Positions 544 to 56,467 of a DNA stretch of 64,000 bases are shown here, one piece after another. Origin of the DNA: Dehalococcoidia bacterium. GTDB taxonomy: Bacteria > Chloroflexota > Dehalococcoidia > Lucifugimonadales > UBA826. Each line of letters begins with the position of its first letter. The stretch's first letter is position 1. The stretch lies in the NCBI GenBank assembly GCA_029936675.1, contig JAPYSB010000005.1, forward strand, positions 12,104-76,103, read 5' to 3'. A program made the translations under genes and the position numbers. The notes beneath the pieces are model-generated. The model saw only the letters and a list, made by a program, of their open reading frames with translations. It made no database searches and was not told the origin of the DNA.

Positions 544-1998
544 TTGACAACCACGAAGAGCAAGGCTGACATAGGATTGGTAGCACATTTATTAAGAAGG
601 GCTGGATTTGGAGCTACTCCAAATGAAATGGACAGTTTCATTGAAATGGATTACGACGAAATAGTTGATTATCTTATCAATTTCGATCTCCCTGATTACA
701 TCCCACAAGATTTCATTTCTAGATTTCATAAGGATCAGTCTGACCTGAGAATAGCAGATGGTGCGAGAGCCCATTGGATATACCGTATGGTAATGACTAA
801 GACTCCTTTGCGAGAGAAAATGTGTCTGTTCTGGCACAGGATTTTTGCCACGGCTGCGACAAAGTTGATACAAAATAGAGTGGTTGTCAATCAAATTGAC
901 ATGTTTAGAGAAAAGGGATTCGGAAGATTTGATGATCTTTTATTAGGTTTGTCAAGGGATCCAGCAATGATCATGTGGCTCGACAACCAAGATAATCATG
1001 GGTCAAACATTAACGAGAATTACGGCAGGGAAATCCTCGAGTTATTTTCTATGGGGGTAGGCAATTATAGCGAGGACGATATTAAAGATACTGCAAGAGC
1101 ATTCACCGGATGGAGTGTCGTCAACCCAGAATATATGTCGATTAAGATGCGTAATAACACTGTTCGTCCCTACGGGTATATTTCATGGCAATATGAATAC
1201 GATGCTAAAGACCATGACAATGGTGTGAAAACTATATTGGGAGAGACAGGTAATTGGAACGGAGAGGATGCGATTCGTATTATATGCGAACAAAAAGCCA
1301 CTGCGGAGTATATCGCGCGTCATATGTATCATTTTTTTGTAGCGGATGAAGTGCCTGTACCACAATGGCCACATCAATCACCGAGGGACACAGAAGCTAT
1401 CAGCCTTATGGTGGAGTCGTATTTCCAAAACGGACATAGCATTAAATCTATGATGGAAACGATGCTTAAAGCGGAGTTTTTCAAGGAGGAGTCGGCAAGA
1501 TATGCAAGAATAAAAAGTCCGGCGGAAATGGTGGTAGGTACCATGCGGTTGGCAGGCCCAATCGAACTTCCTTCGGACGAAACCTATTATGCTCAGGCTG
1601 TTTGTTCCAATATGGGCCAGGCATTACTGGGGCCGCCCAGTGTCGAAGGATGGCAGGGCGGGAGTGAGTGGATCAACACAGGAACCTATCTTGAAAGAGT
1701 TAATTTCGCAACTAAGATACTTGATAATTCGGACAAAGAAGGAGTGAGGAACATAATTGATCGAATAAAATCGATTAATAATACAGGGAATATGACTTCA
1801 GACAACTTAGTATCAGGATGTCTTGAAATTTTGGGGCCAATAAATGTTTCCACAATGACAGAGAAAAGATTAAAAAAATTTGCTTTGAAATACGAAGAGT
1901 TAACTTGGTCGGATGAAACTTCATCCGACCAGTTTGACACGGCGGCGCTTTCGGTAATCCAACTCATTGTCTGCACTCAGGAGTATCAAACCGCATAG
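544..1998 (+). CDS. DUF1800 domain protein
   Basis: 484-aa ORF with a TTG start 3 nt after GGAGAGG. Motifs 'HLLRRAGFGATP', 'LFWHRIF' and 'NENYGREILELFSMGVGNYSEDDIKDTARAFTGW' are typical of DUF1800. No N-terminal signal sequence. Confidence 0.85.
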   Translation: MTTTKSKADIGLVAHLLRRAGFGATPNEMDSFIEMDYDEIVDYLINFDLPDYIPQDFISRFHKDQSDLRIADGARAHWIYRMVMTKTPLREKMCLFWHRIFATAATKLIQNRVVVNQIDMFREKGFGRFDDLLLGLSRDPAMIMWLDNQDNHGSNINENYGREILELFSMGVGNYSEDDIKDTARAFTGWSVVNPEYMSIKMRNNTVRPYGYISWQYEYDAKDHDNGVKTILGETGNWNGEDAIRIICEQKATAEYIARHMYHFFVADEVPVPQWPHQSPRDTEAISLMVESYFQNGHSIKSMMETMLKAEFFKEESARYARIKSPAEMVVGTMRLAGPIELPSDETYYAQAVCSNMGQALLGPPSVEGWQGGSEWINTGTYLERVNFATKILDNSDKEGVRNIIDRIKSINNTGNMTSDNLVSGCLEILGPINVSTMTEKRLKKFALKYEELTWSDETSSDQFDTAALSVIQLIVCTQEYQTA

Positions 1999-2025
1999 TC
2001 TTAAATAGAGGAGTGCGAATACTAA

Positions 2026-3021
2026 ATGGTAGCGACGAAATTTGAGCTTAAATATAGCTCCAATGTAGGGTTTGCGACCGACCAAGGAGGCCGGGGATTT
2101 CAATTGCCTGCCCACTTGGCAATTAGGTCTGATCAAAGAATTTTTGTGGCAAGTAGAGGAAGAGGGCCAACTGTTGGTGTACAGATGGTATCGAGAGATT
2201 TTGAGTTTTTCGGAAAGATTGGCTCCCAAGGCAAGGATATTGGCCAAATGATGGAACCAAGTGCCGTAGCCTTTGATTCCAACGAGAATTTGTATGTGTC
2301 AGACGAAAAATTGGATAGGATAACCTGCTTTGATCGGGAAGGAGAGCTCGTTGGATCGTGGGGAGTATCGGGAGAAGGGCTAGGCGAAATGCATAGACCG
2401 ACAGGGCTTTTGATATTGGATGATGTGGTTTATGTAACTGATGCAATGAATCATAGGATCCAGCGTTACCATACTGATGGAAGATTTATAGATCAATTGA
2501 ACACGACGAAAAACACAGAATCCCAGTTGCATTACCCTTGGGGAATAGCTAGTGGTGTGAATAATGATGTATACGTCGCTGACTGGGGTAACAACAGGGT
2601 TGTTAGGTTTAATCAGGAAGGCGATTTTATGTCGGAGCTAGTGGGAGGGATAGATGCTGATATGCCATTGAACAGGCCTGCCGATGTCGCGGTGGATAAT
2701 GAAGGTAACTTATACGTCGCTGATTGGGGTAATCAGCAACTTCAAGTTTTTGATGAGAACTATAATTTTTTATATATGAATAGGGGAGAGGCGGACCTGA
2801 ATCGATGGGCATTGGAATATTTTGAATCTCAACGAGATGAGAAACGAGCACGTTCAAGTTATGTACCTGTTTATAAGACCGATACTAGTGACGTTAGAGA
2901 AATTTCTGCGAGAATCGAACCATATTTCTGGGACCCATGTGCAGTAATGGTAGATGGGGATGGAAGGGCCTATGTTCTTGAAACTTGTAGGCATAGATTT
3001 CAAATTTTTGAAAGAATTTAA
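2026..3021 (+). CDS. NHL-repeat beta-propeller protein
   Basis: 331-aa ORF with repeated blades ('NLYVSDEKLDRITCF', 'VVYVTDAMNHRIQRY', 'DVYVADWGNNRVVRF', 'NLYVADWGNQQLQVF'). No signal peptide. Confidence 0.85.
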   Translation: MVATKFELKYSSNVGFATDQGGRGFQLPAHLAIRSDQRIFVASRGRGPTVGVQMVSRDFEFFGKIGSQGKDIGQMMEPSAVAFDSNENLYVSDEKLDRITCFDREGELVGSWGVSGEGLGEMHRPTGLLILDDVVYVTDAMNHRIQRYHTDGRFIDQLNTTKNTESQLHYPWGIASGVNNDVYVADWGNNRVVRFNQEGDFMSELVGGIDADMPLNRPADVAVDNEGNLYVADWGNQQLQVFDENYNFLYMNRGEADLNRWALEYFESQRDEKRARSSYVPVYKTDTSDVREISARIEPYFWDPCAVMVDGDGRAYVLETCRHRFQIFERI

Positions 3022-3056
3022 TAGAATGACCAACATATAGGAAAGAGGAGAACAAT

Positions 3057-4178
3057 ATGGGTGATAAGAAAATAGTCGTTGTCCAGTTATCCGGAGGTAA
3101 CGATTACCTTAATTGTGTGATTCCATATGACAATCCACATTATGTGGACAATCGTCCCAATGTGCGGATAACAGAGGACAGGGTGATACCAATAGGAGAT
3201 GGCTTAGGCTTTAATCCGGTTATGGGCCCTATTAAAGATTTGTATGATCAAGGCAAAGTTGCTGTGATTCACGGGGTGGGATATCCGGAGCCAAACAGAT
3301 CTCACTTTAGGTCTATGGATATTTGGCACACTGCAGAACCAACCAAAGTTGGTAATGAGGGCTGGTTAGGGAATGCTATAAACCAAATGTATCCAAAGCA
3401 TGACAATGTGGTGGCAGCTGTTAATTTCGGTGCCGGACTACCCCGGGCACTGGTATCCCATGGGGCTCCTGTGGCATCGGTGACGGATTTAAACACTTAT
3501 GGCCTAATGAACCATGTCAGTGAGGTAGACCAACGAAATGAGGCCCTTCAGGCATTTAAAGATATGTACTCGCAAGCAATAGGGAGTGGTCCTGTTATGG
3601 ACTACCTAAGCCAGACGGGCCTTGATGCTTTGAAAGGTGCAGAGATAATAGGTGGTGTGACCGATAAGTACTCCTCAGATGTTGAGTACGCTGAAAACTC
3701 GTTTGCAAAAGCAATGAAAGGAGCAGCCCAAGTTTTACAGGCTGATATTGGCACTAGGATTTGCTATACCCAACATGGTAGCTTTGATGCCCACACGAAC
3801 GGGATTGCCCTTCAAGAAGGTTTACTGACCGATGTGTCTGGTGGAATATACGATTTCTACGACGATATGAAGAGGGCAAATAAAAGTGACGATGTAATTA
3901 TGTTTGTCTTCACAGAATTTGGGAGAAGGGTCAAAGACAATGGTAATGGTACAGATCATGGGTCTGGAGGTGTTGCATTTGTTATTGGGGATCAGGTAGA
4001 CGGAGGTCAGTATAGTGAATACCCTTCCCTAGCAGCTGATCAGCTGCTGGAAGGTGATTTGAGGTTCAATTTGGATTTCCGGAGTGTATATACAGAGATC
4101 TTAGAAGACTGGTTGGAAATTGATGCTAGGTCAGTTGTTAAAGGCGAATATGAGAAGGTCGGCTTTCTAAAAAATTAG
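3057..4178 (+). CDS. DUF1501 domain protein (alkaline-phosphatase/sulfatase-like fold)
   Basis: 373-aa ORF with a strong SD (AAGAGGAG) upstream of the ATG. Motifs 'VVQLSGGNDYLN', 'GYPEPNRSHFRSMDIWHT' and 'FTEFGRRVKDNGNGTDHGSGG'. It starts directly in the catalytic domain, with no twin-arginine leader. Confidence 0.85.
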   Translation: MGDKKIVVVQLSGGNDYLNCVIPYDNPHYVDNRPNVRITEDRVIPIGDGLGFNPVMGPIKDLYDQGKVAVIHGVGYPEPNRSHFRSMDIWHTAEPTKVGNEGWLGNAINQMYPKHDNVVAAVNFGAGLPRALVSHGAPVASVTDLNTYGLMNHVSEVDQRNEALQAFKDMYSQAIGSGPVMDYLSQTGLDALKGAEIIGGVTDKYSSDVEYAENSFAKAMKGAAQVLQADIGTRICYTQHGSFDAHTNGIALQEGLLTDVSGGIYDFYDDMKRANKSDDVIMFVFTEFGRRVKDNGNGTDHGSGGVAFVIGDQVDGGQYSEYPSLAADQLLEGDLRFNLDFRSVYTEILEDWLEIDARSVVKGEYEKVGFLKN

Positions 4179-4235: not shown

Positions 4236-5417
4236 CTATAGAGCTCTTTCTTCTATCCAGTTAAGATCTACTTCTATTCCAAACCCAGGCGCGTCAGAGG
4301 GTTTTACTCGACCGTTCTTAATAACTGGTGTTCCCGGTAAGGCGACCATTTCTTCTAACGGAACTCCGGGAGGTGATACTCCTTCGGACCTTTCACCCCA
4401 TGGAATTACAGGCATTGAATATGCTAAATGCTGACCATATGGATAATTCATGCCCGCATGTCCTATGACCGTTAGCCCATGAGCTTCGGCTATATGGCAT
4501 ATTCGCACACTTGCAGTGATACCTCCAACCCATTGCACATCTGGTTGAAGTATATCGACTAATCCTCTCCCAGCCGCGTCAGCAAAAGGGTGAATTGTGT
4601 ACCAATGTTCACCTGTGGCTAAGATTTGGCCAGGAACTCTTTGTCTAAGTTTGGCATAGCTATCCATATCTTCAGGGAGCATGTAATCTTCCAGCCATTT
4701 GATGTTGTATGGCTTGAGTGCTTCTGATACACGAACCGCATACTCTATATTTGACGACATCCATGAATCGACAGCCAATTCAATATCTGGGCCTATCTGT
4801 TCTCTAGTATTTGCGACTATTTCCACATTTTTGTTTAGTCCGGCAAGGCCTTCATCAGGCCCGTGTCTGAGAAATACCTTGACGGCTTTGAAACCTAATT
4901 CAAGGAACCAATCCATATAGTCACTGGTTTTGTACCTCAACATGGTGTTTGAGGCATAGCAAAATATATCGTCTTTTACTGGACCTCCTAGAAGTTCATA
5001 AACAGGCTTTTCTAAAAGTTTTCCCTTGAGATCCCATATAGCATTGTCTAATGCACTAATCGCGTAACTTGCTACTCCTGCAGTCCCATATGATGAAGAG
5101 GATCTACGCATCATGTCCCATAATTTTTCAGTAGCCATTGGGTTTTGGCCTACCAAAAGCTCAGAAAAATGATCATTTATTATAGAAACCACAGGTCCAG
5201 ATTGTATTGTGGTTCCTAGTCCCCAAGTTCCGTCTTCAGCTGTTACAACACATGCGACACGATTCCAGTTTGGACCCGACCTGTACTTTATGTCGTATTT
5301 GTATCGATCCATGGGGCTTACAAAATATCCACCATTTGCATCAAGCTCCACTCTCGGCTGTGTTTTGGGATTGGGGCTTAGATTTACTGCTATTGCTTTA
5401 ATACTTTTGATTTTCAC
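4236..5417 (-). CDS. Enolase-superfamily dehydratase (mandelate racemase/muconate lactonizing family, L-rhamnonate-dehydratase-like)
   Basis: 393-aa ORF. The N-terminal capping domain contains 'ALDNAIWDLKGKLLEKPVYELLGG'. Barrel region contains 'LEDYMLPED' and 'ILATGEH'. Confidence 0.8.
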   Translation of the reverse strand: MKIKSIKAIAVNLSPNPKTQPRVELDANGGYFVSPMDRYKYDIKYRSGPNWNRVACVVTAEDGTWGLGTTIQSGPVVSIINDHFSELLVGQNPMATEKLWDMMRRSSSSYGTAGVASYAISALDNAIWDLKGKLLEKPVYELLGGPVKDDIFCYASNTMLRYKTSDYMDWFLELGFKAVKVFLRHGPDEGLAGLNKNVEIVANTREQIGPDIELAVDSWMSSNIEYAVRVSEALKPYNIKWLEDYMLPEDMDSYAKLRQRVPGQILATGEHWYTIHPFADAAGRGLVDILQPDVQWVGGITASVRICHIAEAHGLTVIGHAGMNYPYGQHLAYSMPVIPWGERSEGVSPPGVPLEEMVALPGTPVIKNGRVKPSDAPGFGIEVDLNWIEERAL

Positions 5418-8482: not shown

Positions 8483-8577
8483 ATGAATTTGGCTACCGGG
8501 TTTATTAAATGTATAAGCTCATTCAATTGTATAATCCATGCGGTAATCAGAGAAGTGTTTGGAATTGGAGTTTTTTA

Positions 8578-9399
8578 ATGACTTATACAGACCTAAAACT
8601 TGATCAAGATGGAGAGGTTCTGAAGATAACTGTTGACCGCCCTGAGGTATTGAATGCTCAAAGTAGGATTATGCGTGAAGAGCTGGATGATGCCTTTGAC
8701 AATGCAGCAACTGATGAATCCGTCAAGGTCGTAATTATTGCAGGGTCAGGAGCTAATTTCTCTGCCGGGCATGATTTAGGAAGTCCACAGGAAATGGCCG
8801 ATAGGGAAAAACGCCCCTATTCCCCTGGCACCGCTGGGGAATATGAAAGGAGCTGGCAGCAGAATGTGGCTAATACCTTTCGGTGGAGGGATTTTCCAAA
8901 ACCCACGATAGCTCAAGTTCAAGGTGTATGTATTATGGGGGGGATAATTTTGGCTTCTTCTTGCGATCTAATTGTTGCTTCTCAAGATGCTCGATTTAGT
9001 GATCGTACCGTAAGGTGGGGTGGCCCCCACGTACAATATTTAGGCCTTCCTTATGAAATTGGTATACGGAAGGCAAAAGAGTACCTTTTTACAGGAGATT
9101 GGATGACAGCCATGGAAGCTGAAAAATTAGGACTTGTTAATAAAGTCGTGCCTCTTGAGCAGTTAGAAGAGGAAACAATGAATTTGGCTCAAAGGATAGC
9201 TTTGCAAGACGCGTTTGCCTTAAGGCTGTCAAAAGCCTCATTGAATCAGGTACAGGATCAAATGGGCTATCGAAATAGCATCATGTCAGGATTTCATAAC
9301 CATGCATTAGGCCTGTCATATAGACGAGAAATTTATGATGGTGAAAAAGTGACCTCAATCGAGCGAGCGAGAGAACGTGATAAAAAATTTGGTGATTAA
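8578..9399 (+). CDS. Enoyl-CoA hydratase/isomerase (crotonase) family protein
   Basis: Motifs 'VVIIAGSGANFSAGHDL' and 'PTIAQVQGVCIMGGIILASSCDLIVAS'. I prefer the ATG at 8578 (GGAG 7 nt upstream) over the track start at 8509. Confidence 0.85.
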   Translation: MTYTDLKLDQDGEVLKITVDRPEVLNAQSRIMREELDDAFDNAATDESVKVVIIAGSGANFSAGHDLGSPQEMADREKRPYSPGTAGEYERSWQQNVANTFRWRDFPKPTIAQVQGVCIMGGIILASSCDLIVASQDARFSDRTVRWGGPHVQYLGLPYEIGIRKAKEYLFTGDWMTAMEAEKLGLVNKVVPLEQLEEETMNLAQRIALQDAFALRLSKASLNQVQDQMGYRNSIMSGFHNHALGLSYRREIYDGEKVTSIERARERDKKFGD

Positions 9400-9404
9400 A
9401 GCCT

Positions 9405-11813
9405 ATGGCGCCTTTCTCTAATCTAAAAGTGTTGGATTTGGCCGCAGATTTTGCGGGAAGCTTTTGTACCCGTCTTCTTGGTGATTTTGGTGCCTCTGTA
9501 AAAAAAATTGTTATCAACGATCGAGAAGATCGTTCATCATCATATGGGCCATTCATAAATGATGACCGGGTTCCCAAATCAAGTGCCATGTTCCACTTCA
9601 TGAATTACAACAAACAGGTTGTATCAATTTCTAGCCAATCCGATACCATTCGAGAATTAGCCTTGTCGGCAGATTTATTAGTCGAGGATTTTTCAAATAA
9701 GGAATTGCGGACGTTGGGGCTGAATTTTGCAAATATACGTGATTTAAACCCAGACATCATCATTTGTTCTATGAGTCCATTTGGAAGAGGAACTAAATGG
9801 GAGGAAAAACCATGGAGCGATTTAACGATCCAGGCCATGACAGGGATGTGCAGTGTAAATGGAGACCAAGGGAAATCTCCATTGAAGGAGCCCGGAACAG
9901 AAAGTGAATTTATTACAGGAGCAAACGCTTTTGTAGCCTCGGGTGCTGCCTTAATTAATAGAGATGCCACAGGAATTGCACAGCAGGTAAATGTATCTGT
10001 TTTGAAGTCAGTTTTGCATAGCTACAGCCCATATCTCCTAGCCGCACTGCATACGGGGAATCCCAGACAGCAACAATCCCAAGGACTTCATTTTGGGCTT
10101 GTACCATGTAAAGATGGATACGTGTCACTTAGTGTCCGCCATGAACCTACATGGGAACATATGTGGTTATTTTTTGGCGATCCCCAGTTTGCTCAAAACC
10201 CAAGGTTTGATACAGCTACCAAGAGACGTGAGAATGAAGAAGAGCTTTGTGAAATACTATTTCCAATACTTGCAAATTATTCCCGAAAGGAGCTACTCCA
10301 CGGATTAAGCCCTCTTCGGATTCTGGTTGGCATTGCAAATTCTGTGTCGGACCTACTAGAAGACGAGCATCTAAAATTTAGAAATGCTTTTGTAGAATTT
10401 GATAACGAAGGAAAATTTTGGAAAATGCCTGGGGCACCTTTTCAGATGTCACTGACACCATGGGAATTTAAAGGTGAGCTGTCTTCAAAAGATTTTTCGG
10501 TTTGGGATCACTCGGCAAACGGTATCAGTAACCCCCCCCCGAATTCTATGGGAGCACAAAGAACAAAAGGTCCTCTTTCAGGAATGAGGGGCGTTGTATT
10601 AACACAAGCCTGGGCAGGTGCTTATAGTACTCAGCTTCTTTCGGATTTAGGAATGGAAATTATACAGGTGGAGTCTGTCACTCGCATTGATCCCTGGCGG
10701 GGTGGAGTTCCCCCTAAACTAGCAGGCTTGTATCCAGAATCAGATCCAGGAGATAGACCGTGGGATAGAAATGCTCTTTATAATGGCGTGAATCGGGGTA
10801 AGAAGGCGATAACTCTTGACCTTAACCATTCAGAATCAAAAGATGCATTTATGGAATTGGTATCGATAAGTGACGTGGTTGTAGAGAACTTTTCTGGAAG
10901 GGTAATAAGTAATTTGGGGTTAGATTATGATTCCCTCAGGTCTGTAAACCCTTCAATAGTTATGGTTAGAATGCCAACTTATGGGACTAGTGGACCCTAT
11001 TCAAATTATGCTGGGAATGGTGGTACAACAGAGCCGGTGTCTGGGATGTCCTACCTTATGGGGTACCGGGACGGACCACCAATAAATTCTGGAATAATGC
11101 ACACTGATGCTTATAGCGGTGTTTTAGCGTGTGGTGCCACGATATCTGCTTTAAGAGAGAGAGTGATTTCTGGGTCAGGTCAGGAGATAGATATCTCTCA
11201 ACAGGAAGCGAGTATGACCCTTTTAGCTGAATATATTATGGAAGGCTCGATCTCGGGGACCTCCCCCATGAGACAAGGCAATAGCAACAGAGACTATGCA
11301 CCTCAGGGGTGCTACCGTGCAAAGGATTCTATCTGGGTAGCTATCTCTGTAAAAACGAATGATCACTGGAGGTCTTTTTGCCGATCTTTAGGGTTGGAGG
11401 ATTTATTTGCCAAGGACGATTATGCGACCAAAGATTCCAGAATAAGAAATGCAATTCAATTGGATAGGGAGATATCTCAATGTATTAGTAAATATGTGTC
11501 TGAGAATGTTGTTCAAAAATTACAGATCGCGTTGGTGCCATGTGAGAAAATTTTGACTTTATTAGAAGCCGCAGAAAATAATGACTTTCACGAAATGAAA
11601 TTATTTGAAAAAATAACTCACCCTGAGTCAGGAAGTTTTGATTACCCGGTACCTCCATGGGATTTTGAATCTACACCGGTCCAACCTCAAGAACCAGCCC
11701 CTACATTAGGCCAACACTCTGAAGAAGTGTTTAGAGACCTCAACGGGTGGTCTGAAAGTGAAATAATACGATTTAAAAACCTTCAATTAACAGGAACGGA
11801 CCCTTTAATTTAA
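9405..11813 (+). CDS. Tandem-fused double family III CoA-transferase (two complete CaiB/BaiF domains)
   Basis: 802 aa. Domain 1 covers about aa 1-370 ('LKVLDLAADFAGSFCTRLLGDFGASV'). Domain 2 covers about aa 390-802 ('VVLTQAWAGAYSTQLLSDLGMEIIQVES', 'NRGKKA'). The linker is '..ANGISNPPPNSMGAQRTKG..'. Confidence 0.85.
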   Translation: MAPFSNLKVLDLAADFAGSFCTRLLGDFGASVKKIVINDREDRSSSYGPFINDDRVPKSSAMFHFMNYNKQVVSISSQSDTIRELALSADLLVEDFSNKELRTLGLNFANIRDLNPDIIICSMSPFGRGTKWEEKPWSDLTIQAMTGMCSVNGDQGKSPLKEPGTESEFITGANAFVASGAALINRDATGIAQQVNVSVLKSVLHSYSPYLLAALHTGNPRQQQSQGLHFGLVPCKDGYVSLSVRHEPTWEHMWLFFGDPQFAQNPRFDTATKRRENEEELCEILFPILANYSRKELLHGLSPLRILVGIANSVSDLLEDEHLKFRNAFVEFDNEGKFWKMPGAPFQMSLTPWEFKGELSSKDFSVWDHSANGISNPPPNSMGAQRTKGPLSGMRGVVLTQAWAGAYSTQLLSDLGMEIIQVESVTRIDPWRGGVPPKLAGLYPESDPGDRPWDRNALYNGVNRGKKAITLDLNHSESKDAFMELVSISDVVVENFSGRVISNLGLDYDSLRSVNPSIVMVRMPTYGTSGPYSNYAGNGGTTEPVSGMSYLMGYRDGPPINSGIMHTDAYSGVLACGATISALRERVISGSGQEIDISQQEASMTLLAEYIMEGSISGTSPMRQGNSNRDYAPQGCYRAKDSIWVAISVKTNDHWRSFCRSLGLEDLFAKDDYATKDSRIRNAIQLDREISQCISKYVSENVVQKLQIALVPCEKILTLLEAAENNDFHEMKLFEKITHPESGSFDYPVPPWDFESTPVQPQEPAPTLGQHSEEVFRDLNGWSESEIIRFKNLQLTGTDPLI

Positions 11814-11818
11814 TATAC

Positions 11819-13033
11819 TTGATTGAAATGACTCAAAAACAAATAGTAAATACACAAATTAGCGAGATTATTTCTAAGGCTTCGGAATTTTTAGAACTTA
11901 CTGATAAAGAAGTTCTCTCACTGGGTAACTATTCAGAAGATCACATAGATGATCTATGCCGTGCTGCATCTAGCATCAGAGATTACGGGAAAGGAAGAAC
12001 AGTCACTTTTTCTCCTAAAGTTTTCATTCCATTGACGAGACTGTGTCGTGATTACTGTGGGTATTGCACGTTTAGGGTAGACCCTGATCAGACAGAAAAT
12101 CTATATATGAGCCCCGCAGAAGTGCTGAATGTGGCAAAGGCGGGAGAAAATTTGGGGTGTACAGAGGCTTTATTTACTCTTGGGGAACGACCAGAATTAA
12201 AGTATGTCGAAGCCAAGAAATGGCTTTCACTTCATGGTTATGACAGCACCTTGGACTATTTGAGCGCTATGACAGAACTGGTAGTGAAAGAGACGAAACT
12301 TTTACCTCACGCCAATCCGGGAACAATGACTCACAGAGAGCTAAACACTTTGAAAGATTCAAACCCCTCAACCGGATTAATGTTGGAAAGTACCAGTGAA
12401 CTTCTTTATCAGGTCGGAGGGCCTCATGAATTTGCCCCAAGTAAGAGGCCGATTGTGAGGTTAAAAACAATTTCGATAGCTGGGGAATTGCGAATTCCAT
12501 TTACCACCGGTTTGCTTATAGGTATAGGGGAAACTATGACAGATAGAATGGAGTCTCTGTTAGAAATTAGGAATATACAGCGAAAGTTTCATCACATACA
12601 GGAGGTAATAATTCAAAATTTTAGAGCGAAGCCAGAGACACCGATGGCAGAATCTCCCGATGCTGAAACTACAGAAATGCTGTGGACTGTTGCTGCTGCG
12701 CGGCTTATTTTAGGCCCTAGTGCCAACATACAAGTGCCGCCAAACCTTAGTTCGGAGAACTACGAGGTTTATTTGAAGGCTGGTATAAATGACTGGGGTG
12801 GGGTTTCTCCTTTGACAATCGATTATGTTAATCCTGAAGCACCGTGGCCTCTCATAACCAACCTGAAATCAAAAACAGAGTCAGCAGGATTTGAATTGCG
12901 GCCAAGATTGGCGGTATACCCAGAGTATTTCCTTGATACTGATGAATACTTACCAGTAGACTTGCTTACAAAGGTGAGAGAATTGGCTGACGATGAAGGA
13001 TATGTAAAGGACGGTATTAACAGGTATGTCTGA
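11819..13033 (+). CDS. cofG: 7,8-didemethyl-8-hydroxy-5-deazariboflavin (FO) synthase subunit 1, radical SAM
   Basis: Radical-SAM cluster motif 'CRDYCGYCTF', with typical CofG length and context. The start could be TTG 11819 or ATG 11828. Confidence 0.8.
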   Translation: MIEMTQKQIVNTQISEIISKASEFLELTDKEVLSLGNYSEDHIDDLCRAASSIRDYGKGRTVTFSPKVFIPLTRLCRDYCGYCTFRVDPDQTENLYMSPAEVLNVAKAGENLGCTEALFTLGERPELKYVEAKKWLSLHGYDSTLDYLSAMTELVVKETKLLPHANPGTMTHRELNTLKDSNPSTGLMLESTSELLYQVGGPHEFAPSKRPIVRLKTISIAGELRIPFTTGLLIGIGETMTDRMESLLEIRNIQRKFHHIQEVIIQNFRAKPETPMAESPDAETTEMLWTVAAARLILGPSANIQVPPNLSSENYEVYLKAGINDWGGVSPLTIDYVNPEAPWPLITNLKSKTESAGFELRPRLAVYPEYFLDTDEYLPVDLLTKVRELADDEGYVKDGINRYV

Positions 13034-14336
13034 TATTGAATCAAATGATTTAAATGTGGACTTTTCGGGTATTTTGGCTTCGATAGATCCGGAAATATCT
13101 CGTGTTTTAAAAGTTGCGATTGCCGGTGGTGATATTTCAGCGTCAGATGCCTGTCTGCTTCTGGATTCCAATGGATTAGAGTACAACGCTACAGTGTTGG
13201 TTGCCGATGTTTTGCGTAGAAGGACTGTGGGAGATGTCGTGACATATGTTGTAAATAGAAACATTAATTTCACTAATGTCTGTATAAAGAGATGTGGATT
13301 CTGCGCATTTAGTAGAGATTTCAGGCAAGAAGAAGGTTATCTATTACCAGTGGAGGAAATAGTCCGTCGATCAAAAGAGGCATGGGATTATGGAGCCACT
13401 GAGGTATGTATACAGGCAGGCCTACCACCTCAAATGGAAGGAGATTTGTACATTCGGCTATGTGAGGCAATAAAAGCTGAACTTCCAGATATTCATATTC
13501 ATGGTTTTTCCCCTGAAGAGGTTCTTTATGGATCAATCCGATCTAAGACATCCATAAGGCAACACCTTAGTGATCTTAAAGACGCAGGTGTCGGAAGTTT
13601 GCCAGGCACCTCAGCAGAGATATTGGATCAGGCCTTAAGGGATAAAATATCCCCGGGCCGTATAACTAAAGATCAATGGATCGAGGTCATAACGACAGCC
13701 CATGAACTGGGTATACAAACTACATCTACTGTGATGTTTGGTCATGTGGAGACAAATCTGCAAATTGCCGAACATATTGATATTATTCGGAACATACAGA
13801 TGGAAACGGGCGGGTTTACAGAATTCGTACCGTTGAGTTTTGTGAACTCTGAAGCCCCTATGTTTCTTAAAGGGTTAATCCCTAATGTTAGAACTGGACC
13901 TACCGGTATGGATGTGGTGAAGGTCCATGCTGTCGCGAGAATCATGTTGAATAATTGGATTCCAAACATTCAGGCCTCTTGGGTTAAAGAGGGAGACCGA
14001 ATTTCTCAATTACTACTTACCGCAGGGGTAAATGATTTGGGGGGTACTTTAATTAACGAAAGTATTTCTACATCCGCAGGGGCTCAACACGGTCAGTTAA
14101 TGAAGCCTTCCCAGTTCAGAGACATGATACGGGATGCAGGAAGGCTACCGGCAGAAAGATTCACAAATTATAGTTTGAGAAAGGTATATGACAAGTCGGA
14201 TAACGAGAAAGATCCGTTAGATCTACTGGAAGATAACGTAGAGGAAATATTTGGTTCGTACAATAAGCTCATTGAGATGGAAAATTTCCGATTTGAGCAC
14301 CCACGAAAGGTCGCCGAAAGAACTGCTGGTGTATGA
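13026..14336 (+). CDS. cofH: FO synthase subunit 2, radical SAM
   Basis: Radical-SAM motif 'CIKRCGFCAF'. It is paralogous to the preceding gene and overlaps cofG by 8 nt, which suggests translational coupling. Confidence 0.8.
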   Translation: MSDIESNDLNVDFSGILASIDPEISRVLKVAIAGGDISASDACLLLDSNGLEYNATVLVADVLRRRTVGDVVTYVVNRNINFTNVCIKRCGFCAFSRDFRQEEGYLLPVEEIVRRSKEAWDYGATEVCIQAGLPPQMEGDLYIRLCEAIKAELPDIHIHGFSPEEVLYGSIRSKTSIRQHLSDLKDAGVGSLPGTSAEILDQALRDKISPGRITKDQWIEVITTAHELGIQTTSTVMFGHVETNLQIAEHIDIIRNIQMETGGFTEFVPLSFVNSEAPMFLKGLIPNVRTGPTGMDVVKVHAVARIMLNNWIPNIQASWVKEGDRISQLLLTAGVNDLGGTLINESISTSAGAQHGQLMKPSQFRDMIRDAGRLPAERFTNYSLRKVYDKSDNEKDPLDLLEDNVEEIFGSYNKLIEMENFRFEHPRKVAERTAGV

Positions 14337-15050: not shown

Positions 15051-16268
15051 GTGAGGAAAATTTTAGAAAGGGCTTTTGATTCCCTAAATGTTCGAGGATT
15101 TCGCTTTATGTGGTTGGGAGATTTGGCTCTCTCAACGGCAGAATTTATGGAAATCCTGATCTTGTCTTGGTATATATTGGGTGAAACTGAGTCTCCTCTT
15201 GTTCTGGGAATTTTTGCTGCACTTAGATTTACTGGCACAGTAGTAGCGCCTTTTTTTGGGGTCATAGTCGATCGGATAGGAAGACGTCGGTTATATATAT
15301 TCGGTCGAATTTCATTTGTCATATTGTCTTCGTCGATATTTATATTAACCTTGTTTGATTTTCTAAGCGTAACAGCGGTTTTGATTTTCGCGGCCCTTGT
15401 TGGGCTTTCCCGCTCCTTAGATATGATTGTCAGACAGTCTGTGCTTCCGGTTATCGTTTCTCCATCTCAATTGCAGAACGGTGTTGCCCTTTTGAGAACT
15501 GGAAGAGATATGACACAAATCATCGGCCCAGTTTTCGGAGGGTTTCTATTGGTGTCAATTGGTGTAGGGAAAAGCTATCTTTTCATTATTATTTTGCACT
15601 TATTATCTTTGCTGTTTGTGTTCTTGATCCCGGGAGTACCTAATACGGCTATAAAAACTGCCCAATCTATGTTCGAAAACCTAAAGGGGGGATTTTCTTA
15701 TGTCAAAGTAAACCCGTTTTTGTTTGGCCTGCTTGCTGTTGCATTTATTGTTAACTTAACGGCATTTCCATTAAACAATACCCTCCTGGCAGTGATAGCA
15801 AGACAGGTGATGCATATTGATGCAGCCGGTCTAGGATGGTTGATGGGTACGTACTCTGCCGGCTCCTTACTGGGTTCATTACTTATCGGTTATTTTTCTA
15901 CTATGGATAGAGCAGGGCGGGCAATGATCATCGGTTCAATATTTTGGCACATTGGTATTCTGATAATGGCTTATATGCAATGGTTCTATGTATCCTTACC
16001 GGTTTTGTTTTTTGTAGGTATCTCGCAGTCTTTTGCAATGGTCACTATGGCTATGATGCTGTTGAAATACACTTCGGCAGAAATGCGTGGAAGGGTTCTC
16101 GGCCTTCGCCAATTAGCTGTGTATGGGTTGCCTGTAGGGGTGTTGATTTCTGGATTTATAGCGGAAAATAATGATGCATCACTTGCCTTAATTTTCAATG
16201 GGTTACTTGGTTTGTTTATACTGGTACTCGCCATTGTGAAGTGGCCTGAAATGTTGCAAAGAAGATAA
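15051..16268 (+). CDS. MFS transporter
   Basis: 405 aa with about 12 predicted hydrophobic helices. 'DRIGRRR' loop between TM2 and TM3. Confidence 0.8.
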   Translation: MRKILERAFDSLNVRGFRFMWLGDLALSTAEFMEILILSWYILGETESPLVLGIFAALRFTGTVVAPFFGVIVDRIGRRRLYIFGRISFVILSSSIFILTLFDFLSVTAVLIFAALVGLSRSLDMIVRQSVLPVIVSPSQLQNGVALLRTGRDMTQIIGPVFGGFLLVSIGVGKSYLFIIILHLLSLLFVFLIPGVPNTAIKTAQSMFENLKGGFSYVKVNPFLFGLLAVAFIVNLTAFPLNNTLLAVIARQVMHIDAAGLGWLMGTYSAGSLLGSLLIGYFSTMDRAGRAMIIGSIFWHIGILIMAYMQWFYVSLPVLFFVGISQSFAMVTMAMMLLKYTSAEMRGRVLGLRQLAVYGLPVGVLISGFIAENNDASLALIFNGLLGLFILVLAIVKWPEMLQRR

Positions 16269-16289
16269 TTTCTTTTAAGGACTGAAAAT

Positions 16290-16808
16290 ATGACACCTGA
16301 AGAAGAGAGAGTTAGAGAATACCTCATTTCACAAGGTGAAAAATATCCCTTTAAAGAGCTATGGGTAAGATCAATAGCGGCTCGTCTAGAACTCATAAAA
16401 GAAGTATCAGAGGTAAATCAAAAGCAAGCTGACTTTTCTTTTGATAGTGATGAATGGACTATTTCAGAAATTCTAGAACATGTTGTGACAAGTACATATA
16501 GAGTGACTAATTTGATATCGGAACTCGCCCTTGGAATTACTGGAGATTCTTCTAATATTGACCCTCCAAGGAAGATGTCTAATTTAAGTATTGATGAATT
16601 GCGCAAAGGACTCTTAGACGGGGCATTCAAATGGACATCTATGACGGATAACCTTCCAGCCACCCCAAACATGGATCAAATGTCCAACCATAGTTTTTTT
16701 GGGGATCTGCACGCTGGGGGGTGGTACTTGTTTCAAAGAGTTCATGATTTAGATCATTTGAATCAGGTCAGAAATAATAAATCTCATGCAGATTATCCCA
16801 ATAACTAA
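16290..16808 (+). CDS. DinB-family (four-helix bundle, His-triad) protein
   Basis: 172 aa with His motifs 'ILEHV' and 'VHDLDHLNQV' spaced as in DinB_2-type proteins. This is motif-level evidence only. Confidence 0.5.
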   Translation: MTPEEERVREYLISQGEKYPFKELWVRSIAARLELIKEVSEVNQKQADFSFDSDEWTISEILEHVVTSTYRVTNLISELALGITGDSSNIDPPRKMSNLSIDELRKGLLDGAFKWTSMTDNLPATPNMDQMSNHSFFGDLHAGGWYLFQRVHDLDHLNQVRNNKSHADYPNN

Positions 16809-16833
16809 TACAGAAGGGTGATGGAAATTCCAT

Positions 16834-17877
16834 ATGAAAATAGCAGTACATTCATTCAACGGCGTCACCTCTGATGCTTCAGATTGGAATCAAATAGCAG
16901 AATTTGCGAGAGAGGCCGAAGCCTTAGGGGCTGATTCCATATGGACTTCGGAGGCCTGGGGGACTGATGCGATAACCCCTCTTGCATATCTGGCTGCTTC
17001 TACAACAAAAATACGTCTAGGTACAGGAATAGTACAGGTAGGAAGTCGAACTCCCGGCAATCTGGTCATGACAAGTTTGACTTTGCAATCTATGTCAGGG
17101 GGCCGGTTTATTCTTGGTTTAGGGACAAGCGGGCCTCAAGTTATTGAAGGCTGGCATGGGGTGACATTCGGTAATCCCATATTAAGAACTAAAGAACTTC
17201 TGGAGATTATTAAGATGGGCGTGGCCGGGGAAAAACTTCTATACAAGGGAAACCATTATCAATTGCCTTTGGAAGGTGGAGAAGGCAAAGCTATAAGGAC
17301 GAGTGCCAAGACTTGGGAAGTTCCTGTTTATGTGGCATCCTTGGGTCCCACCAACTTAGAAATGACGGGCGAGAAAGCCGATGGATGGATTGGGGGTTGT
17401 TTTATACCCGAAACAGGAAACGTTTTTCTAGATAAAATCAAGAAAGGAGTCCTGAGGTCCGGTAGAAATATTGAAGATATAGATATATTGATCCCAGTTT
17501 CTTTGGATTTCACCGACGAAGTCGAAGAAACGGCAAAAAAACATGCACGTGGATATGGATTTACATTTGGAGCTATGGGATCGGTAAAAAATAACTTCTA
17601 TAAGAATGCTTACGCCCGACAGGGTTATGGAGAGGTTGTGGATGTGGTCCAAAAGCTGTGGGTGGAAGGTAGGAGAGAAGAGGCTCGGGATATGGTTCCC
17701 AATGAACTTGCTTTGAAATCCAATTTAATTGGCACAGATGAAATGATCAAAGAAAGACTTTTACTCTATAAAAATTTGGGGGTCAACACACTTAAAGTTA
17801 GTTTGCCAGGTGATGATATATCAAGTAAGACTGATGCTTTGGGCAGACTGATGAACCTCGTTTCGGAACTGGGTTAG
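16834..17877 (+). CDS. LLM-class (luciferase-like) F420/flavin-dependent oxidoreductase
   Basis: 347 aa. Motifs 'ADSIWTSEAWGTDAITPLAYLAASTTKIRLGTGI' and 'GRFILGLGTSG'. Confidence 0.8.
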   Translation: MKIAVHSFNGVTSDASDWNQIAEFAREAEALGADSIWTSEAWGTDAITPLAYLAASTTKIRLGTGIVQVGSRTPGNLVMTSLTLQSMSGGRFILGLGTSGPQVIEGWHGVTFGNPILRTKELLEIIKMGVAGEKLLYKGNHYQLPLEGGEGKAIRTSAKTWEVPVYVASLGPTNLEMTGEKADGWIGGCFIPETGNVFLDKIKKGVLRSGRNIEDIDILIPVSLDFTDEVEETAKKHARGYGFTFGAMGSVKNNFYKNAYARQGYGEVVDVVQKLWVEGRREEARDMVPNELALKSNLIGTDEMIKERLLLYKNLGVNTLKVSLPGDDISSKTDALGRLMNLVSELG

Positions 17878-17882
17878 ACGAT

Positions 17883-18923
17883 ATGAAGTTAGGGCTTTTC
17901 ACACATATGTCTTGGCCCGAAGGAGTGAATCAAACTTCGGTATTCCATAATTCTGTAGAACAGGTTAGGTTGGCTGAATCCATGGGATACCATGGGGCTT
18001 GGTTCGCTGAGCACCATTTCACTCGCTACAGTATGGGTTCCTCTGTATTACTAATGCTTGGGCACTTGGCAGCAGTCACAGAGAAAATACGTTTGGGTAC
18101 CGCAGTAATTGTTCCAAATTTACATAATCCTATCAGGATTGCCGAAGATTCCGCCCTTGTAGATCTCTTAAGTAGGGGACGTTTAGATGTTGGCTTCGGT
18201 AGAGGTACATATGGGTATGAATATGGTGGGTTTGGGGTACCCGCTGAAGATACTCAGTCTAGGTTTAGAGAGACCGTGCTAGCAGTAAGGGATTTGTGGT
18301 GTGATAAAGATGTAAGTGTCGACAGCCCTTTCTTTTCTGTTCGTAACGTGGATTTAGTTCCGTCTGTTGTTCAATCACCTCATCCACCTATATATATAGC
18401 TGCAACGAGGTCTGAGGAAACTTTGGATTTTATGATTTCAAACCAGTTTCTTTTGTGTATAGCGGTTGTTCAAGATACAGATGCCGCTCTTGCTTTGGTA
18501 GGAAAATACAGGAAGTTATGTCATCAGAAGGACCAACCTGATCATATGGATGGTGTTCCATTTTTTCGATATGTTCATGTGGCTGAAACCGAGGGAAGAG
18601 CGCTTGAAAACACCAAGAAACATGTAGATTGGATACAGGATATTATGCAGTGGCGCAGGAACCTAGTGGATGCTACCGAGGTTCATTTACCAATGCAAAA
18701 ATGGAGGAGTGAGCGAACCGAGTTACCACCAGATAATCAATATATCTCTGAAAAAAGAGCATTTATAGGAACACCTGAAGCCGTTGCTGAAAAAATTATG
18801 ATGCTAAAAGATCACGGAGTTTCGTATTTTGGATGCAATTTTGCGATGGGAGGCCTCTCACAAGAACAAGTAATTCAGTCTATGAAGTTGTTTGAAAAGA
18901 AAGTAATGCCTTTAATTTCTTGA
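17883..18923 (+). CDS. LLM-class flavin-dependent monooxygenase/oxidoreductase
   Basis: 346 aa. Motifs 'GAWFAEHHFTRYSMGSS..LGHLAAVTEKIRLGTAV' and 'GRLDVGFGRG'. Confidence 0.8.
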   Translation: MKLGLFTHMSWPEGVNQTSVFHNSVEQVRLAESMGYHGAWFAEHHFTRYSMGSSVLLMLGHLAAVTEKIRLGTAVIVPNLHNPIRIAEDSALVDLLSRGRLDVGFGRGTYGYEYGGFGVPAEDTQSRFRETVLAVRDLWCDKDVSVDSPFFSVRNVDLVPSVVQSPHPPIYIAATRSEETLDFMISNQFLLCIAVVQDTDAALALVGKYRKLCHQKDQPDHMDGVPFFRYVHVAETEGRALENTKKHVDWIQDIMQWRRNLVDATEVHLPMQKWRSERTELPPDNQYISEKRAFIGTPEAVAEKIMMLKDHGVSYFGCNFAMGGLSQEQVIQSMKLFEKKVMPLIS

Positions 18924-47742: not shown

Positions 47743-48885
47743 TTGCCAAGGCCAACTAAAATTGAAAAACTGGAAACTTTTCTTTGGGATAGATGGTTAC
47801 TTTTAAAAATACATTGTGAAGACGGGACTGTTGGGATTGGGGAAGGAGGTGTCCATGGTTGGCAGAGACCTACCAAAACCATGATTGAGACCATGGAGGC
47901 GTACCTCATAGGTCAAGACCCGCACAAGATCGAACATCATTATCAGTGGTTATATCGCTCATCACACTTCATGGGGTCGGTAGTACAAGGAGCCTTGTCT
48001 GCAATTGACATAGCGTTGTGGGACATCAAAGGTAAAAGGCTAGAGGTTCCAATTTATGACCTCATGGGAGGCAAGACAAGGGATAAAGTCCGTTGTTATA
48101 TGCATGTTGGATCCGGCAATGGTGGTAGTGTTGAAGACCTAGCTAATGATGCTTTGGCTGCTGTAAAAAAAGGTTATACAGCTGTAAGGTTTTCTCCTTT
48201 TTCATCAGAATATTATTTACACAAATCTTACAGTGAATGGGCCAATGAAGCTGTCACAAGGGTAGGCGCGGTACGGGAAATGGTTGGTCCTGACGTTGAC
48301 GTTTGCATAGAAATACACCGACAAATGAACCCTACTGAAAGTATTTCCTTAGGAAGGAGATTGGAACAATTCAATCCTTTTTTTTATGAAGACCCAATGC
48401 TCCCAGACAGTCCAAAAATTATGGGCGAAATAGCTGATAAATGTAATATCCCTATTGCAACTGGAGAAAGATTCACCACGATTTTCGAATACCAGCAACT
48501 TTTGGAATCTAATGCAGTTTCCTATGTTCGGCCTGATCTGTGTTTGTGCGGAGGCCTCAGCGGATCCAAAAAGGTGGCTGCCATGGCTGAGGCAAACCAT
48601 GTAAAAGTTATTCCTCATAACCCTTTGTCACCCGTAAGTACGGCTGCTTGTGTCCAGCTAGATGCATGCATACCAAATTTTGCTTTGCAAGAATACACGG
48701 GGGAGGATAAGCCCCCAAAGAGCGACTTGTTTGTGGAACCACTCGAGATGATCAACGGCTATCTAACAGTGCCAGAGGGTCCAGGTTTGGGGATCCAAAT
48801 AAATGAGCATGCCTTATCTATGCCTGAAAATCCAAAAGTACTAGATACTCCGATCGGATATGATGGGTCGGTACAAGATAGGTAA
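47743..48885 (+). CDS. Enolase-superfamily dehydratase, D-galactonate-dehydratase-like
   Basis: 380 aa with a TTG start. Motifs 'LLLKIHCEDGTVGIGEG', 'YLIGQDPHKIEHHYQ', 'AIDIALWDIKGKRLEVPIYDLMGG' and 'PFFYEDP'. Confidence 0.85.
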   Translation: MPRPTKIEKLETFLWDRWLLLKIHCEDGTVGIGEGGVHGWQRPTKTMIETMEAYLIGQDPHKIEHHYQWLYRSSHFMGSVVQGALSAIDIALWDIKGKRLEVPIYDLMGGKTRDKVRCYMHVGSGNGGSVEDLANDALAAVKKGYTAVRFSPFSSEYYLHKSYSEWANEAVTRVGAVREMVGPDVDVCIEIHRQMNPTESISLGRRLEQFNPFFYEDPMLPDSPKIMGEIADKCNIPIATGERFTTIFEYQQLLESNAVSYVRPDLCLCGGLSGSKKVAAMAEANHVKVIPHNPLSPVSTAACVQLDACIPNFALQEYTGEDKPPKSDLFVEPLEMINGYLTVPEGPGLGIQINEHALSMPENPKVLDTPIGYDGSVQDR

Positions 48886-50652: not shown

Positions 50653-51849
50653 TTAGCTGAATACAGCCTTCGCACCCATCAATAGTTTGATCTCATCTTT
50701 TGAGTACCCAATTTCCTCGAGGATATCTTCAGAGTCTGCACCAGGAATCCTTCCTAACGTTCTTATGGAGCCTGGGGTATTCATTAGCTTAGATCCAATT
50801 CCTACCTGGGTTATAGGGTCACCATCTATAGTTCCAGCTTGAATAAACATATCTCTAGCTTTGGAATGCGGGTCTCCGATCACTTCATCAAAGTCGTAAA
50901 CTGGCGCTGCTGCGATGTCTTTAGTTTTTCTGAACAAATCCCACCATTCATCCCTTTTTTTGGTCATAAATATGGTTTTGAGGTTCTGCATGATTTCAGC
51001 GTATTTCTCAGTGTCGTGCTGGCTGTCGGAAAACTTATTTAATCCTAAAGTTAGGCAAAGATTCCGCCAGAAATTGGGCTCTATACAACCAAGGCTTATG
51101 TATTTGCCGTCTTCACATTCAAAAACGTTATAATATGGCACCCCTCCATTCAAAGTCATTTGTCCAGGCTTTGGAACTGTTCCTGATCTAAAGTATTCAC
51201 CTGATATTGACGATAAGAGATACGTCACACCATCTGACATTGATATATCTATTTGTTGTCCTTCACCGGTGTTTGTTCGAGAAAAAAGTGCACATACTAT
51301 CGAGAATGCTGCATTCATTCCTCCCGCTGCAAAATCAGCAATAATGTTGTAGGGAATCGAAGGTCTATCGTCCTCAGTCCCAATTAAGCCGAGGGCCCCA
51401 CCAATGGAAATATAGTTCACATCATGTCCCACCAAATCTTTGTACGGTCCAGTTTGTCCATACCCAGAGATCGAACAATAAATTATTGATGGATTGATTT
51501 TCTTTATAGTTTCGTAGTCGCAACCCAGCCTATTTACCACCCCAGGTCTAAAGCCTTCAATGAATATATCAGCATCTCGGCATATCTGGTGAAGTACCTC
51601 TATTCCGACTTCTTTTTTTAGGTCTAGAATGATGCTTCGTTTGTTGCGATTGAGAGGATTTGTTGCTGCTATCTTTCTGTTTTGGGGATCATTCGAGGTT
51701 TTATTTGCTATTATCCTGGCTGTTGGGGGCGCGTCTACCTTAATTACATCAGCTCCCATATCACCAAGCATCATAGAGCAAAAAGGGCCTGGTGCCATCC
51801 TACTCAAATCAACTATTTTTATGCCATCCAATGCGGTTTTAGTTATCAA
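50653..51849 (-). CDS. Family III CoA-transferase (Asp type)
   Basis: 398 aa. Motifs 'IKIVDLSRMAPGPFCSMMLGDMGADVIKV' and 'NRNKRS', with the catalytic Asp in 'NIIADFAAGG'. It overlaps the upstream gene by 4 nt. Confidence 0.9.
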   Translation of the reverse strand: MITKTALDGIKIVDLSRMAPGPFCSMMLGDMGADVIKVDAPPTARIIANKTSNDPQNRKIAATNPLNRNKRSIILDLKKEVGIEVLHQICRDADIFIEGFRPGVVNRLGCDYETIKKINPSIIYCSISGYGQTGPYKDLVGHDVNYISIGGALGLIGTEDDRPSIPYNIIADFAAGGMNAAFSIVCALFSRTNTGEGQQIDISMSDGVTYLLSSISGEYFRSGTVPKPGQMTLNGGVPYYNVFECEDGKYISLGCIEPNFWRNLCLTLGLNKFSDSQHDTEKYAEIMQNLKTIFMTKKRDEWWDLFRKTKDIAAAPVYDFDEVIGDPHSKARDMFIQAGTIDGDPITQVGIGSKLMNTPGSIRTLGRIPGADSEDILEEIGYSKDEIKLLMGAKAVFS

Positions 51850-55678: not shown

Positions 55679-56467
55679 TTAAAGCTTTCCGGGCATTCCT
55701 CCATCGACATTTATTATTTCCCCTGTAATAAATCTAGAATCACTAGATACTAAGAACAACACTGTATTAGCTACATCATCGGGATACCCAGGCCCATCCA
55801 GTATTTGAATGAAGTCGAATGCTCCTTTAAGAGAATGGTTTCCTCCTCCCACATCAGTTAAGGGAGTGATGATTTGACCTGGTCGTACCCCATTCACTCT
55901 AATATTGTGCTGGCCTCCCATACCGGCAGCGTATCGGGTAAAAGCATCAACGCCTGCTTTGGCAGCGTAATAAGATGACGAAGGACCTCGCCCTACGAGA
56001 TCGTACATGTTTTTACTGAAACCTCTTTGAGCGGCGAGAGACGACATGTTTACGATGCGTCCCCGTCCCGATTCGATCAAATGGGGCCAAACAGCACGGC
56101 ATACATAAAAGGTTCCATTTAAATTTACGGCAATCACCCTTTCCCAACCTTCGTCTGTTTCGTTTGGGAAATTTCCTTTATCCCCACCACCTGCGTTGTT
56201 AAATAGAACACTTATTTTCCCGTACGTTGAGACAACATTATTGATTACTTCATCAATTTGATTTCGATCAGCGACGTCACATTGGAAAAATTTCGCTTCT
56301 CCACCTGATGCGTTTATAGCAGATTCGACTTCCTTTCCCTCTTTTTCTCTTCTGGCTAGTAACGCGACCTTCGCCCCTTCTTTAGCGAATAAATGGGCTG
56401 TGGCTTCTCCTATTCCACTATTACCACCTGTCACGATTGCTACATCCCCTTCTAGTTTATTTCCCAT
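55679..56467 (-). CDS. Short-chain dehydrogenase/reductase (SDR)
   Basis: Motifs 'VTGGNSGIGEA' and 'NNAG', with catalytic 'YYAAK'. Confidence 0.9.
   Translation of the reverse strand: MGNKLEGDVAIVTGGNSGIGEATAHLFAKEGAKVALLARREKEGKEVESAINASGGEAKFFQCDVADRNQIDEVINNVVSTYGKISVLFNNAGGGDKGNFPNETDEGWERVIAVNLNGTFYVCRAVWPHLIESGRGRIVNMSSLAAQRGFSKNMYDLVGRGPSSSYYAAKAGVDAFTRYAAGMGGQHNIRVNGVRPGQIITPLTDVGGGNHSLKGAFDFIQILDGPGYPDDVANTVLFLVSSDSRFITGEIINVDGGMPGKL

Follow-up and report, generated by a model that had tools for sequence, protein, structure and literature searches.

Family III CoA-transferases have active sites to which both chains of an interlocked dimer contribute. In Frc and CaiB, each site combines a large sub-domain from one chain with a small sub-domain from the partner chain, and canonical members, including Frc/YfdW, CaiB, SUGCT, and YfdE, comprise two identical chains with two equivalent sites. 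BbsEF, a benzylsuccinate CoA-transferase, consists of two different protomers, one carrying the catalytic aspartate (Asp178, named in the title of Protein Data Bank (PDB) entry 9fol as the bearer of the CoA adduct) and the other a tyrosine. The protein described here has one chain of 802 amino acids (aa) with two diverged halves and apparently one active site. It is encoded at 9405..11813 (+) of a 64,000-nucleotide (nt) stretch of DNA from a Dehalococcoidia bacterium (contig JAPYSB010000005.1; the whole stretch is called the window below), next to a gene for an enoyl-CoA hydratase.

The two-domain architecture is already known, including from the SAR202 lineage. Dong et al. 2018 (Nat Commun, PMC6006322) described the tandem domains, found the linker between them to be poorly conserved, counted 2,401 proteins of this architecture as of 2017, and reported a conserved Asp in the C-terminal domain, substitution of which in PtmU4 (D430A/E/N) reduces activity 125-400-fold. 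PtmU4, which forms a thioacid in platensimycin biosynthesis, was characterized there, and DddD, a dimethylsulfoniopropionate (DMSP) CoA-transferase/lyase, was the only two-domain member characterized earlier. SAR202 genomes hold dozens of such transferases, for which recalcitrant dissolved organic matter is the presumed substrate, and a subset of their many CaiB/BaiF proteins has DddD as top Swiss-Prot match, which led to speculation about lyase functions (Landry et al. 2017).

The 802-aa protein shares with the class of PtmU4 and DddD its tandem family III domains, poorly conserved linker, and conserved Asp in the C-terminal domain only, its relatedness to these two proteins being judged by architecture and by the report of Landry et al. 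on SAR202 proteins, not by direct sequence identity. It differs in lineage (Dehalococcoidia/SAR202), as the 2018 survey (PMC6006322) found such proteins mostly in Actinobacteria and Proteobacteria, and in the conserved crotonase-type hydratase that adjoins its gene. To what was known, the present analysis adds that loss of the N-domain Asp is general to the class, that fused and split forms alternate within SAR202, and that the hydratase is a strictly conserved partner. With a probability of about 0.8, the protein is a single-chain αβ family III CoA-transferase that has a single active site and acts, together with the hydratase, on a carboxylic acid. For annotation, this means one enzyme with one predicted active site at Asp568, and neither two transferases nor a glutamate-dependent variant.

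Two family III domains and their catalytic column

The two-domain gene is recognized from the open reading frame (ORF) list, from Pfam, and from more than 100 full-length homologs. It starts with ATG, its coordinates include the stop codon, and its product matches PF02515 (CoA_transf_3) with 538 bits in two stretches, against a cut-off of 23.3. The initial annotation had read it as a single ORF holding two complete CaiB/BaiF-type domains; the single frame and the two PF02515 domains were borne out, but the first domain proved slightly short of complete. Domain 2 (aa 389-802, 10569..11810 (+)) spans positions 1-366 of the 366-position profile and has the same fold, Pfam family, and catalytic Asp position as the canonical enzymes. 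It is the predicted catalytic protomer, given this full-length match and its best solved relative, the catalytic Bbs chain 9fn0_B (171 bits; Foldseek template modeling (TM) score 0.93). Domain 1 (aa 1-360, 9405..10484 (+)), with about 360 aa against about 414 in domain 2, consists of a Rossmann-type large sub-domain (approximately aa 1-200) and a small sub-domain (approximately aa 205-325), and lacks both the C-terminal helices and the LGxH..EV motif typical of canonical members. Alignments to 4ed9, 10uh, SUGCT, and the Tyr-bearing Bbs subunit, together with low conservation of its large sub-domain, mark it as a degenerate, probably non-catalytic protomer. The two halves are 21% identical and are joined by a poorly conserved inter-domain linker (aa 361-388, 10485..10568 (+)).

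The closest solved relatives of the two halves differ. While domain 2 is nearest to the catalytic Bbs chain, the domain 1 profile gives its highest score to 4ed9 (213 bits), ahead of the Tyr-bearing Bbs chain (200) and the catalytic Bbs chain (172). As the best match of domain 1 is thus a canonical, Asp-bearing enzyme, common descent with the Bbs heteromer is compatible with the data, not demonstrated by them.

The catalytic position had initially been located by its spacing, 21 residues downstream of a conserved turn, and this rule is exact in both domains: counted from the last residue of QAMTG (147), position +21 is Glu168 (codon GAA, 9906..9908 (+)), and counted from that of EPVSG (547), it is Asp568 (codon GAT, 11106..11108 (+)). 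In both phmmer and profile alignments, Glu168 falls in the column of the catalytic Asp (4ed9, 10uh, and human SUGCT), and three independent alignments place it opposite the Tyr of the non-catalytic Bbs subunit. Asp568, the predicted nucleophile, pairs with Asp178 of 9fn0 chain B when residues are counted by hand along the printed alignment. An AlphaFold2 model of the protein puts each of the two at the third position of a long helix, Glu168 in helix 166-189 and Asp568 in the equivalent helix 566-589. No other residue of domain 1 aligns with the column, the closest Asp being Asp154, 14 residues upstream of Glu168. When all N- and C-terminal halves were aligned together with MAFFT, the column was shifted by one residue (168 against 569), and the assignments from profiles and structures were preferred.

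Conservation of this column separates the two halves. Of 147 fused proteins aligned with MAFFT, 146 have Asp in the C-domain column, whereas the N-domain column is occupied by Glu (34), Gln (29), Ser (21), Ala (17), Asp (14), His (7), Tyr (7), Gly (5), and others. Among closer homologs it is Glu, Gln, Asp, or Ala, with Asp in one homolog, P0118. This variability, set against the near-invariant Asp of the C-domain, indicates that catalytic constraint has been lost in the N-terminal half across the whole class, and it links the two-domain class conceptually to heteromers such as BbsEF, in which one subunit is catalytic.

A narrower comparison gives the same picture. A scan of one genome per species returned 69 loci, all from Dehalococcoidia/SAR202, among which tblastn with the two halves and the upstream hydratase delimited an orthologous, hydratase-linked group of 46 fetched loci, or 47 with the window. 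Domain 2 reads MH(T/S)D in all 47, and the domain 1 column holds Glu, Gln, Ala, Ser, Tyr, Leu, His, or Cys.

It had been proposed that Glu168 is a meaningful replacement of the Asp, and domain 1 would then form a second, chemically different site, with Glu168 as a family I-like nucleophile or a general base and the enzyme having two specificities. Glutamate can form anhydrides, as it does when serving as the nucleophile of family I enzymes; it is the commonest residue of the column in the 147 fused proteins and is present in 12 of the 19 fused orthologs, and the preceding loop, PLKEPG, is nearly invariant in the clade. Against this stand the seven other residues that close and distant orthologs place in the column, and the state of the ENF(R)PG CoA-contact motif, which domain 2 preserves in full and without variation (E494, N495, R499) but which reads EDFSNK in domain 1 and varies there among homologs. 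The large sub-domain of domain 1 is also much less conserved than that of domain 2, and an Asp-to-Glu change is not benign in a characterized relative: D430E is among the PtmU4 substitutions with 125-400-fold losses. The structure of a D169E mutant of formyl-CoA transferase is available (PDB 1vgr), and this mutant is reportedly inactive (Jonsson et al. 2004). A working Glu168 site is accordingly considered very improbable. Judged from the sequences compared, the domain 1 column is unconstrained, and Glu is no conserved alternative nucleophile.

Conservation asymmetry, hydratase linkage, and the predicted active site

The sub-domains of the single-chain transferase are conserved in a reciprocal pattern. 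Positions conserved at 95% or more among the 47 orthologs make up 40% of the large sub-domain of domain 2 and 16% of that of domain 1, but 21% of the small sub-domain of domain 1 and 6% of that of domain 2; a block-wise view of conservation agrees with these percentages. If the large/small pairing of Frc and CaiB holds in this protein, such reciprocity implies that the Asp568 site is maintained and that the symmetry-related Glu168 site has decayed. The AlphaFold2 model has a mean predicted local distance difference test (pLDDT) score of 85.9 and a predicted TM score (pTM) of 0.92, with only linker residues 371-384 disordered, values that predict two halves confidently packed against each other. 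Its best Foldseek matches are the Asp178-bearing Bbs chains, with a TM score of 0.93 normalized to the target.

The upstream gene, at 8509..9399 (+), encodes an enoyl-CoA hydratase of the crotonase fold (Pfam ECH_1; NCBIfam PRK08290, 291 bits), and its stop codon lies 5 nt ahead of the start codon of the transferase. The hydratase takes this immediate upstream position in 45 of the 46 fetched orthologous loci too, at 66-97% identity, and across these 46 loci no other conserved neighbor was found. In distant loci, the hydratase remains 66-73% identical while the transferase halves fall to approximately 40% and 47% (about 40-49%), which suggests that the substrate of the hydratase is tightly constrained.

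Taken together, these observations are consistent with the following mechanism. Domain 2 would be the working protomer, binding the CoA donor with its Rossmann-type large sub-domain, and Asp568 would be the residue on which the family III mechanism builds its intermediates, an acyl-aspartyl anhydride and an aspartyl-CoA thioester. Domain 1, having lost the catalytic Asp and part of the CoA-binding motifs, would persist as an obligatory partner in an interlocked pseudo-dimer. Its small sub-domain is well conserved and probably both shuts the acceptor-acid pocket of the remaining site and gives that pocket its shape. The symmetry-related second site, composed of the domain 1 large and domain 2 small sub-domains, would have decayed. 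Transferase and hydratase are predicted to be co-transcribed and are probably translationally coupled; transfer from a donor thioester would make the CoA thioester of a carboxylic acid, which hydration or dehydration would follow. Such a module may belong to the extensive SAR202 repertoire for degradation of organic acids. Its conserved partnership marks a two-step unit that could be expressed to find the substrate.

Several points weigh against this picture. The interlocking of a single chain, and the choice of the small sub-domain that faces Asp568, both lean on the pairing rule of Frc and CaiB. Invariant residues persist around the domain 1 site (P159, K161, P163, G164, F169, G172, N67, and K70), and these could reflect retained ligand binding or a second function. 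The conserved pattern of the domain 1 small sub-domain is specific to this clade; across the wider fused family it is the least conserved part, so that conservation within the clade is the one line of support for a role in the pocket. As for the hydratase, its closest solved relatives are uncharacterized mycobacterial proteins, and its NCBIfam name is generic.

The persistent residues around the dead site raise the alternative that the vestigial site in domain 1 has taken on a role other than transfer, either in an eliminating (lyase) step as in DddD or as an allosteric site for a CoA ester or acid that regulates domain 2. Landry et al. raised the lyase possibility for SAR202 proteins with DddD as top Swiss-Prot match, and an enoyl-CoA released by elimination could be taken up by the partner hydratase. 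Nothing, however, places the lyase activity of DddD in its N-domain. Domain 1 shows free drift in both its column residue and its CoA motifs, and such a site would also need the small sub-domain of domain 2, the least conserved region of the protein (6%). Re-use of the site is therefore thought unlikely. A fuller version, in which the dead N-terminal site performs a lyase-type step or senses CoA esters in the manner of bifunctional DddD and the hydratase and transferase form a module that processes an abundant marine carboxylate in SAR202, is likewise doubtful.

Fused and split forms of the enzyme

The initial annotation proposed that the fusion hard-wires a pseudo-heterodimer of one canonical and one altered protomer, and the orthologs speak in favor of this idea. 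The two halves lie in one frame, and are thus fused, in 19 of the 47 loci; in the remaining 28 they lie in different frames as separate genes. In these split pairs, the first gene has 377-411 codons and the second 417-427, and the two abut or overlap, with the stop at 5134 and the start at 5136 in L054, at 5161 and 5163 in L025, and an 8-nt overlap in L024. The compact AlphaFold2 model and the nearest structure, heteromeric BbsEF with its Asp in one subunit, agree with a built-in heterodimer. The split orthologs are direct comparative support for it. Frameshift errors of long-read assemblies were considered as a source of the split orthologs and rejected, since the 28 are species-level genomes from different projects and assemblers and have proper stop/start junctions at differing positions.

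Gene order follows domain order. Predicted from the column residues, the non-catalytic gene comes first and the catalytic gene second in all 28 split loci, the first subunit having Ser, Tyr, Ala, Leu, His, Cys, Gln, or Glu at the column and the second always MH(T/S)D. BbsEF resembles these proteins in pairing a non-catalytic protomer with a catalytic one; if PDB chain A is BbsE, as assumed here, the order would also match bbsE then bbsF. It differs from the 802-aa protein, in which the protomers are fused.

Fusion state does not follow a single split in the neighbor-joining tree. Fused L020 and L021 are sister to split L037 (93% bootstrap), and fused L016, L017, and L019 are sister to split L044 and L051 (100%), while the clade of the window is uniformly fused (100%). 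Fitch parsimony counts four changes on the rooted tree, which implies at least three transitions between fusion and fission within the orthologous group, in either direction. Since fused clades are nested among split ones, the two forms appear to be functionally interchangeable. Such repeated change in one orthologous group would be a natural experiment on the passage from heteromeric to single-chain family III enzymes, and the related SAR202 genomes, with both forms and at least three transitions, offer a clean comparative set on protomer fusion.

The linker itself carries little conservation. Residues 371-384 have pLDDT below 50 and are predicted to be disordered, the linker block has a conservation of 0.26, and linker sequences vary among homologs. 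Within it lies a C9 homopolymer (10532..10540 (+)) that is in frame, encodes Pro377-379, and is unique to this genome; relatives read AAAGTTTTCCC and similar.

This tract had been flagged as a possible source of an assembly or sequencing artifact, in which a miscounted homopolymer joins two adjacent genes. The tract is located precisely within the linker; if one base were lost or gained, a stop would follow within about 15-30 codons, and domain 2 could begin again at an in-frame ATG (10549). Split two-gene orthologs also exist. Yet the same fusion occurs with no C-run in all 18 other fused orthologous loci and in more than 100 database proteins of 799-820 aa, from 92% down to 42% identical. 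The alignment of the window with four relatives (L005, L006, L007, and L014) is ungapped and in frame across the tract, and the window's own clade is entirely fused. The chance that the fusion is an artifact is accordingly negligible. Actual length variation of the C9 run found no evidence in its favor; a one-base slip within it would recreate a split gene pair, the natural arrangement of the 28 orthologs.

Fusion also extends well beyond SAR202. Among the 150 best cluster representatives of an exhaustive search, over 130 were fused proteins, some 780-880 aa long and roughly 30% identical. Fused homologs annotated as 'CoA transferase' are also present in cultured Bosea, Rhodococcus, Neorhizobium, and Paraburkholderia, the closest of those from cultured bacteria (Bosea and Rhodococcus) being approximately 28-29% identical.

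Neighboring genes and other family III CoA-transferases

Genes within approximately 5 kb of the transferase encode an enolase-superfamily protein, a single-domain CoA-transferase, an ABC transporter, the hydratase, and CofG/CofH. The surroundings were compared with those of the described systems. A bbs/bss-type β-oxidation operon (acyl-CoA dehydrogenase, short-chain dehydrogenase/reductase (SDR), and thiolase) was not found around the 802-aa gene, to which only the hydratase is linked. Among its Pfam-named neighbors there was no PtmU4-type thioacid cassette (PtmA3-like acyl-CoA synthetase and sulfur-carrier genes), and no ddd-type genes, although no screen was aimed at dddB/C/T/R.

Directly downstream, CofG- and CofH-like radical SAM genes (11819..14336 (+); Pfam Radical_SAM and CofH_C) start 5 nt past the transferase stop and are probably the two halves of the synthase for FO, the precursor of F420. 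A functional link between them and the transferase was considered and rejected, as the linkage is confined to near relatives of the window (7 of 46 loci). Upstream, a trio of DUF1800, NHL-repeat, and DUF1501 genes (544..4178 (+)) recurs near distant orthologs, at 2785..6545 in L001 and 2..3600 in L043.

Genes of the enolase superfamily (MR_MLE) recur within a few kb of two-domain CoA-transferases. In the window they lie at 4236..5417 (-) and 47743..48885 (+), and others are found in L001, L002, L003, L020, L021, and L048, and on the Bosea plasmid pNBC550. The gene at 4236..5417 (-) is L-rhamnonate-dehydratase-like, with 250 bits, under the family cut-off of 393. A loose functional association with dehydration of acid sugars or other acids is possible.

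The window also holds a split pair that is much closer to BbsEF than the 802-aa protein is, at 51846..54361 (-). The first ORF of the pair (54361..53102) has the Tyr-bearing Bbs subunit 9fn0_A as best match (159 bits) and Glu in the catalytic-Asp column (FPQAELVA); the second (53102..51846), which shares base 53102 with the first, has the Asp, and its best match is the catalytic Bbs subunit 9fn0_B (231 bits). Flanking genes (50653..51849, 54400..55587, and 55679..56467) encode a third family III transferase, an acyl-CoA dehydrogenase, and an SDR, giving a bbs-like β-oxidation cluster at approximately 50.6-56.5 kb of the window.

Further two-domain and single-domain relatives occur in the same lineage. 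L001 has a second two-domain paralog of at least 816 aa (16164..18433) about 6 kb away from the first. A group of fused paralogs (L057-L066, L070, and L072), 28% identical and with no hydratase, is found in the same metagenome-assembled genomes as the orthologs; CAYFIW01, for instance, has both L018 and L064, and CAZCOH01 has both L010 and L066. Eight stand-alone single-domain genes (L026, L029, L030, L034, L038, L047, L049, and L073) have the domain 2 motifs NSG.MHTD and GNGG..EP and are 47-49% identical to domain 2. None of these eight loci has a hydratase nearby, and the best match to domain 1 in each (23-25%; none in L047) is the domain 2-like gene itself. These genes may be homodimeric relatives of the catalytic half.

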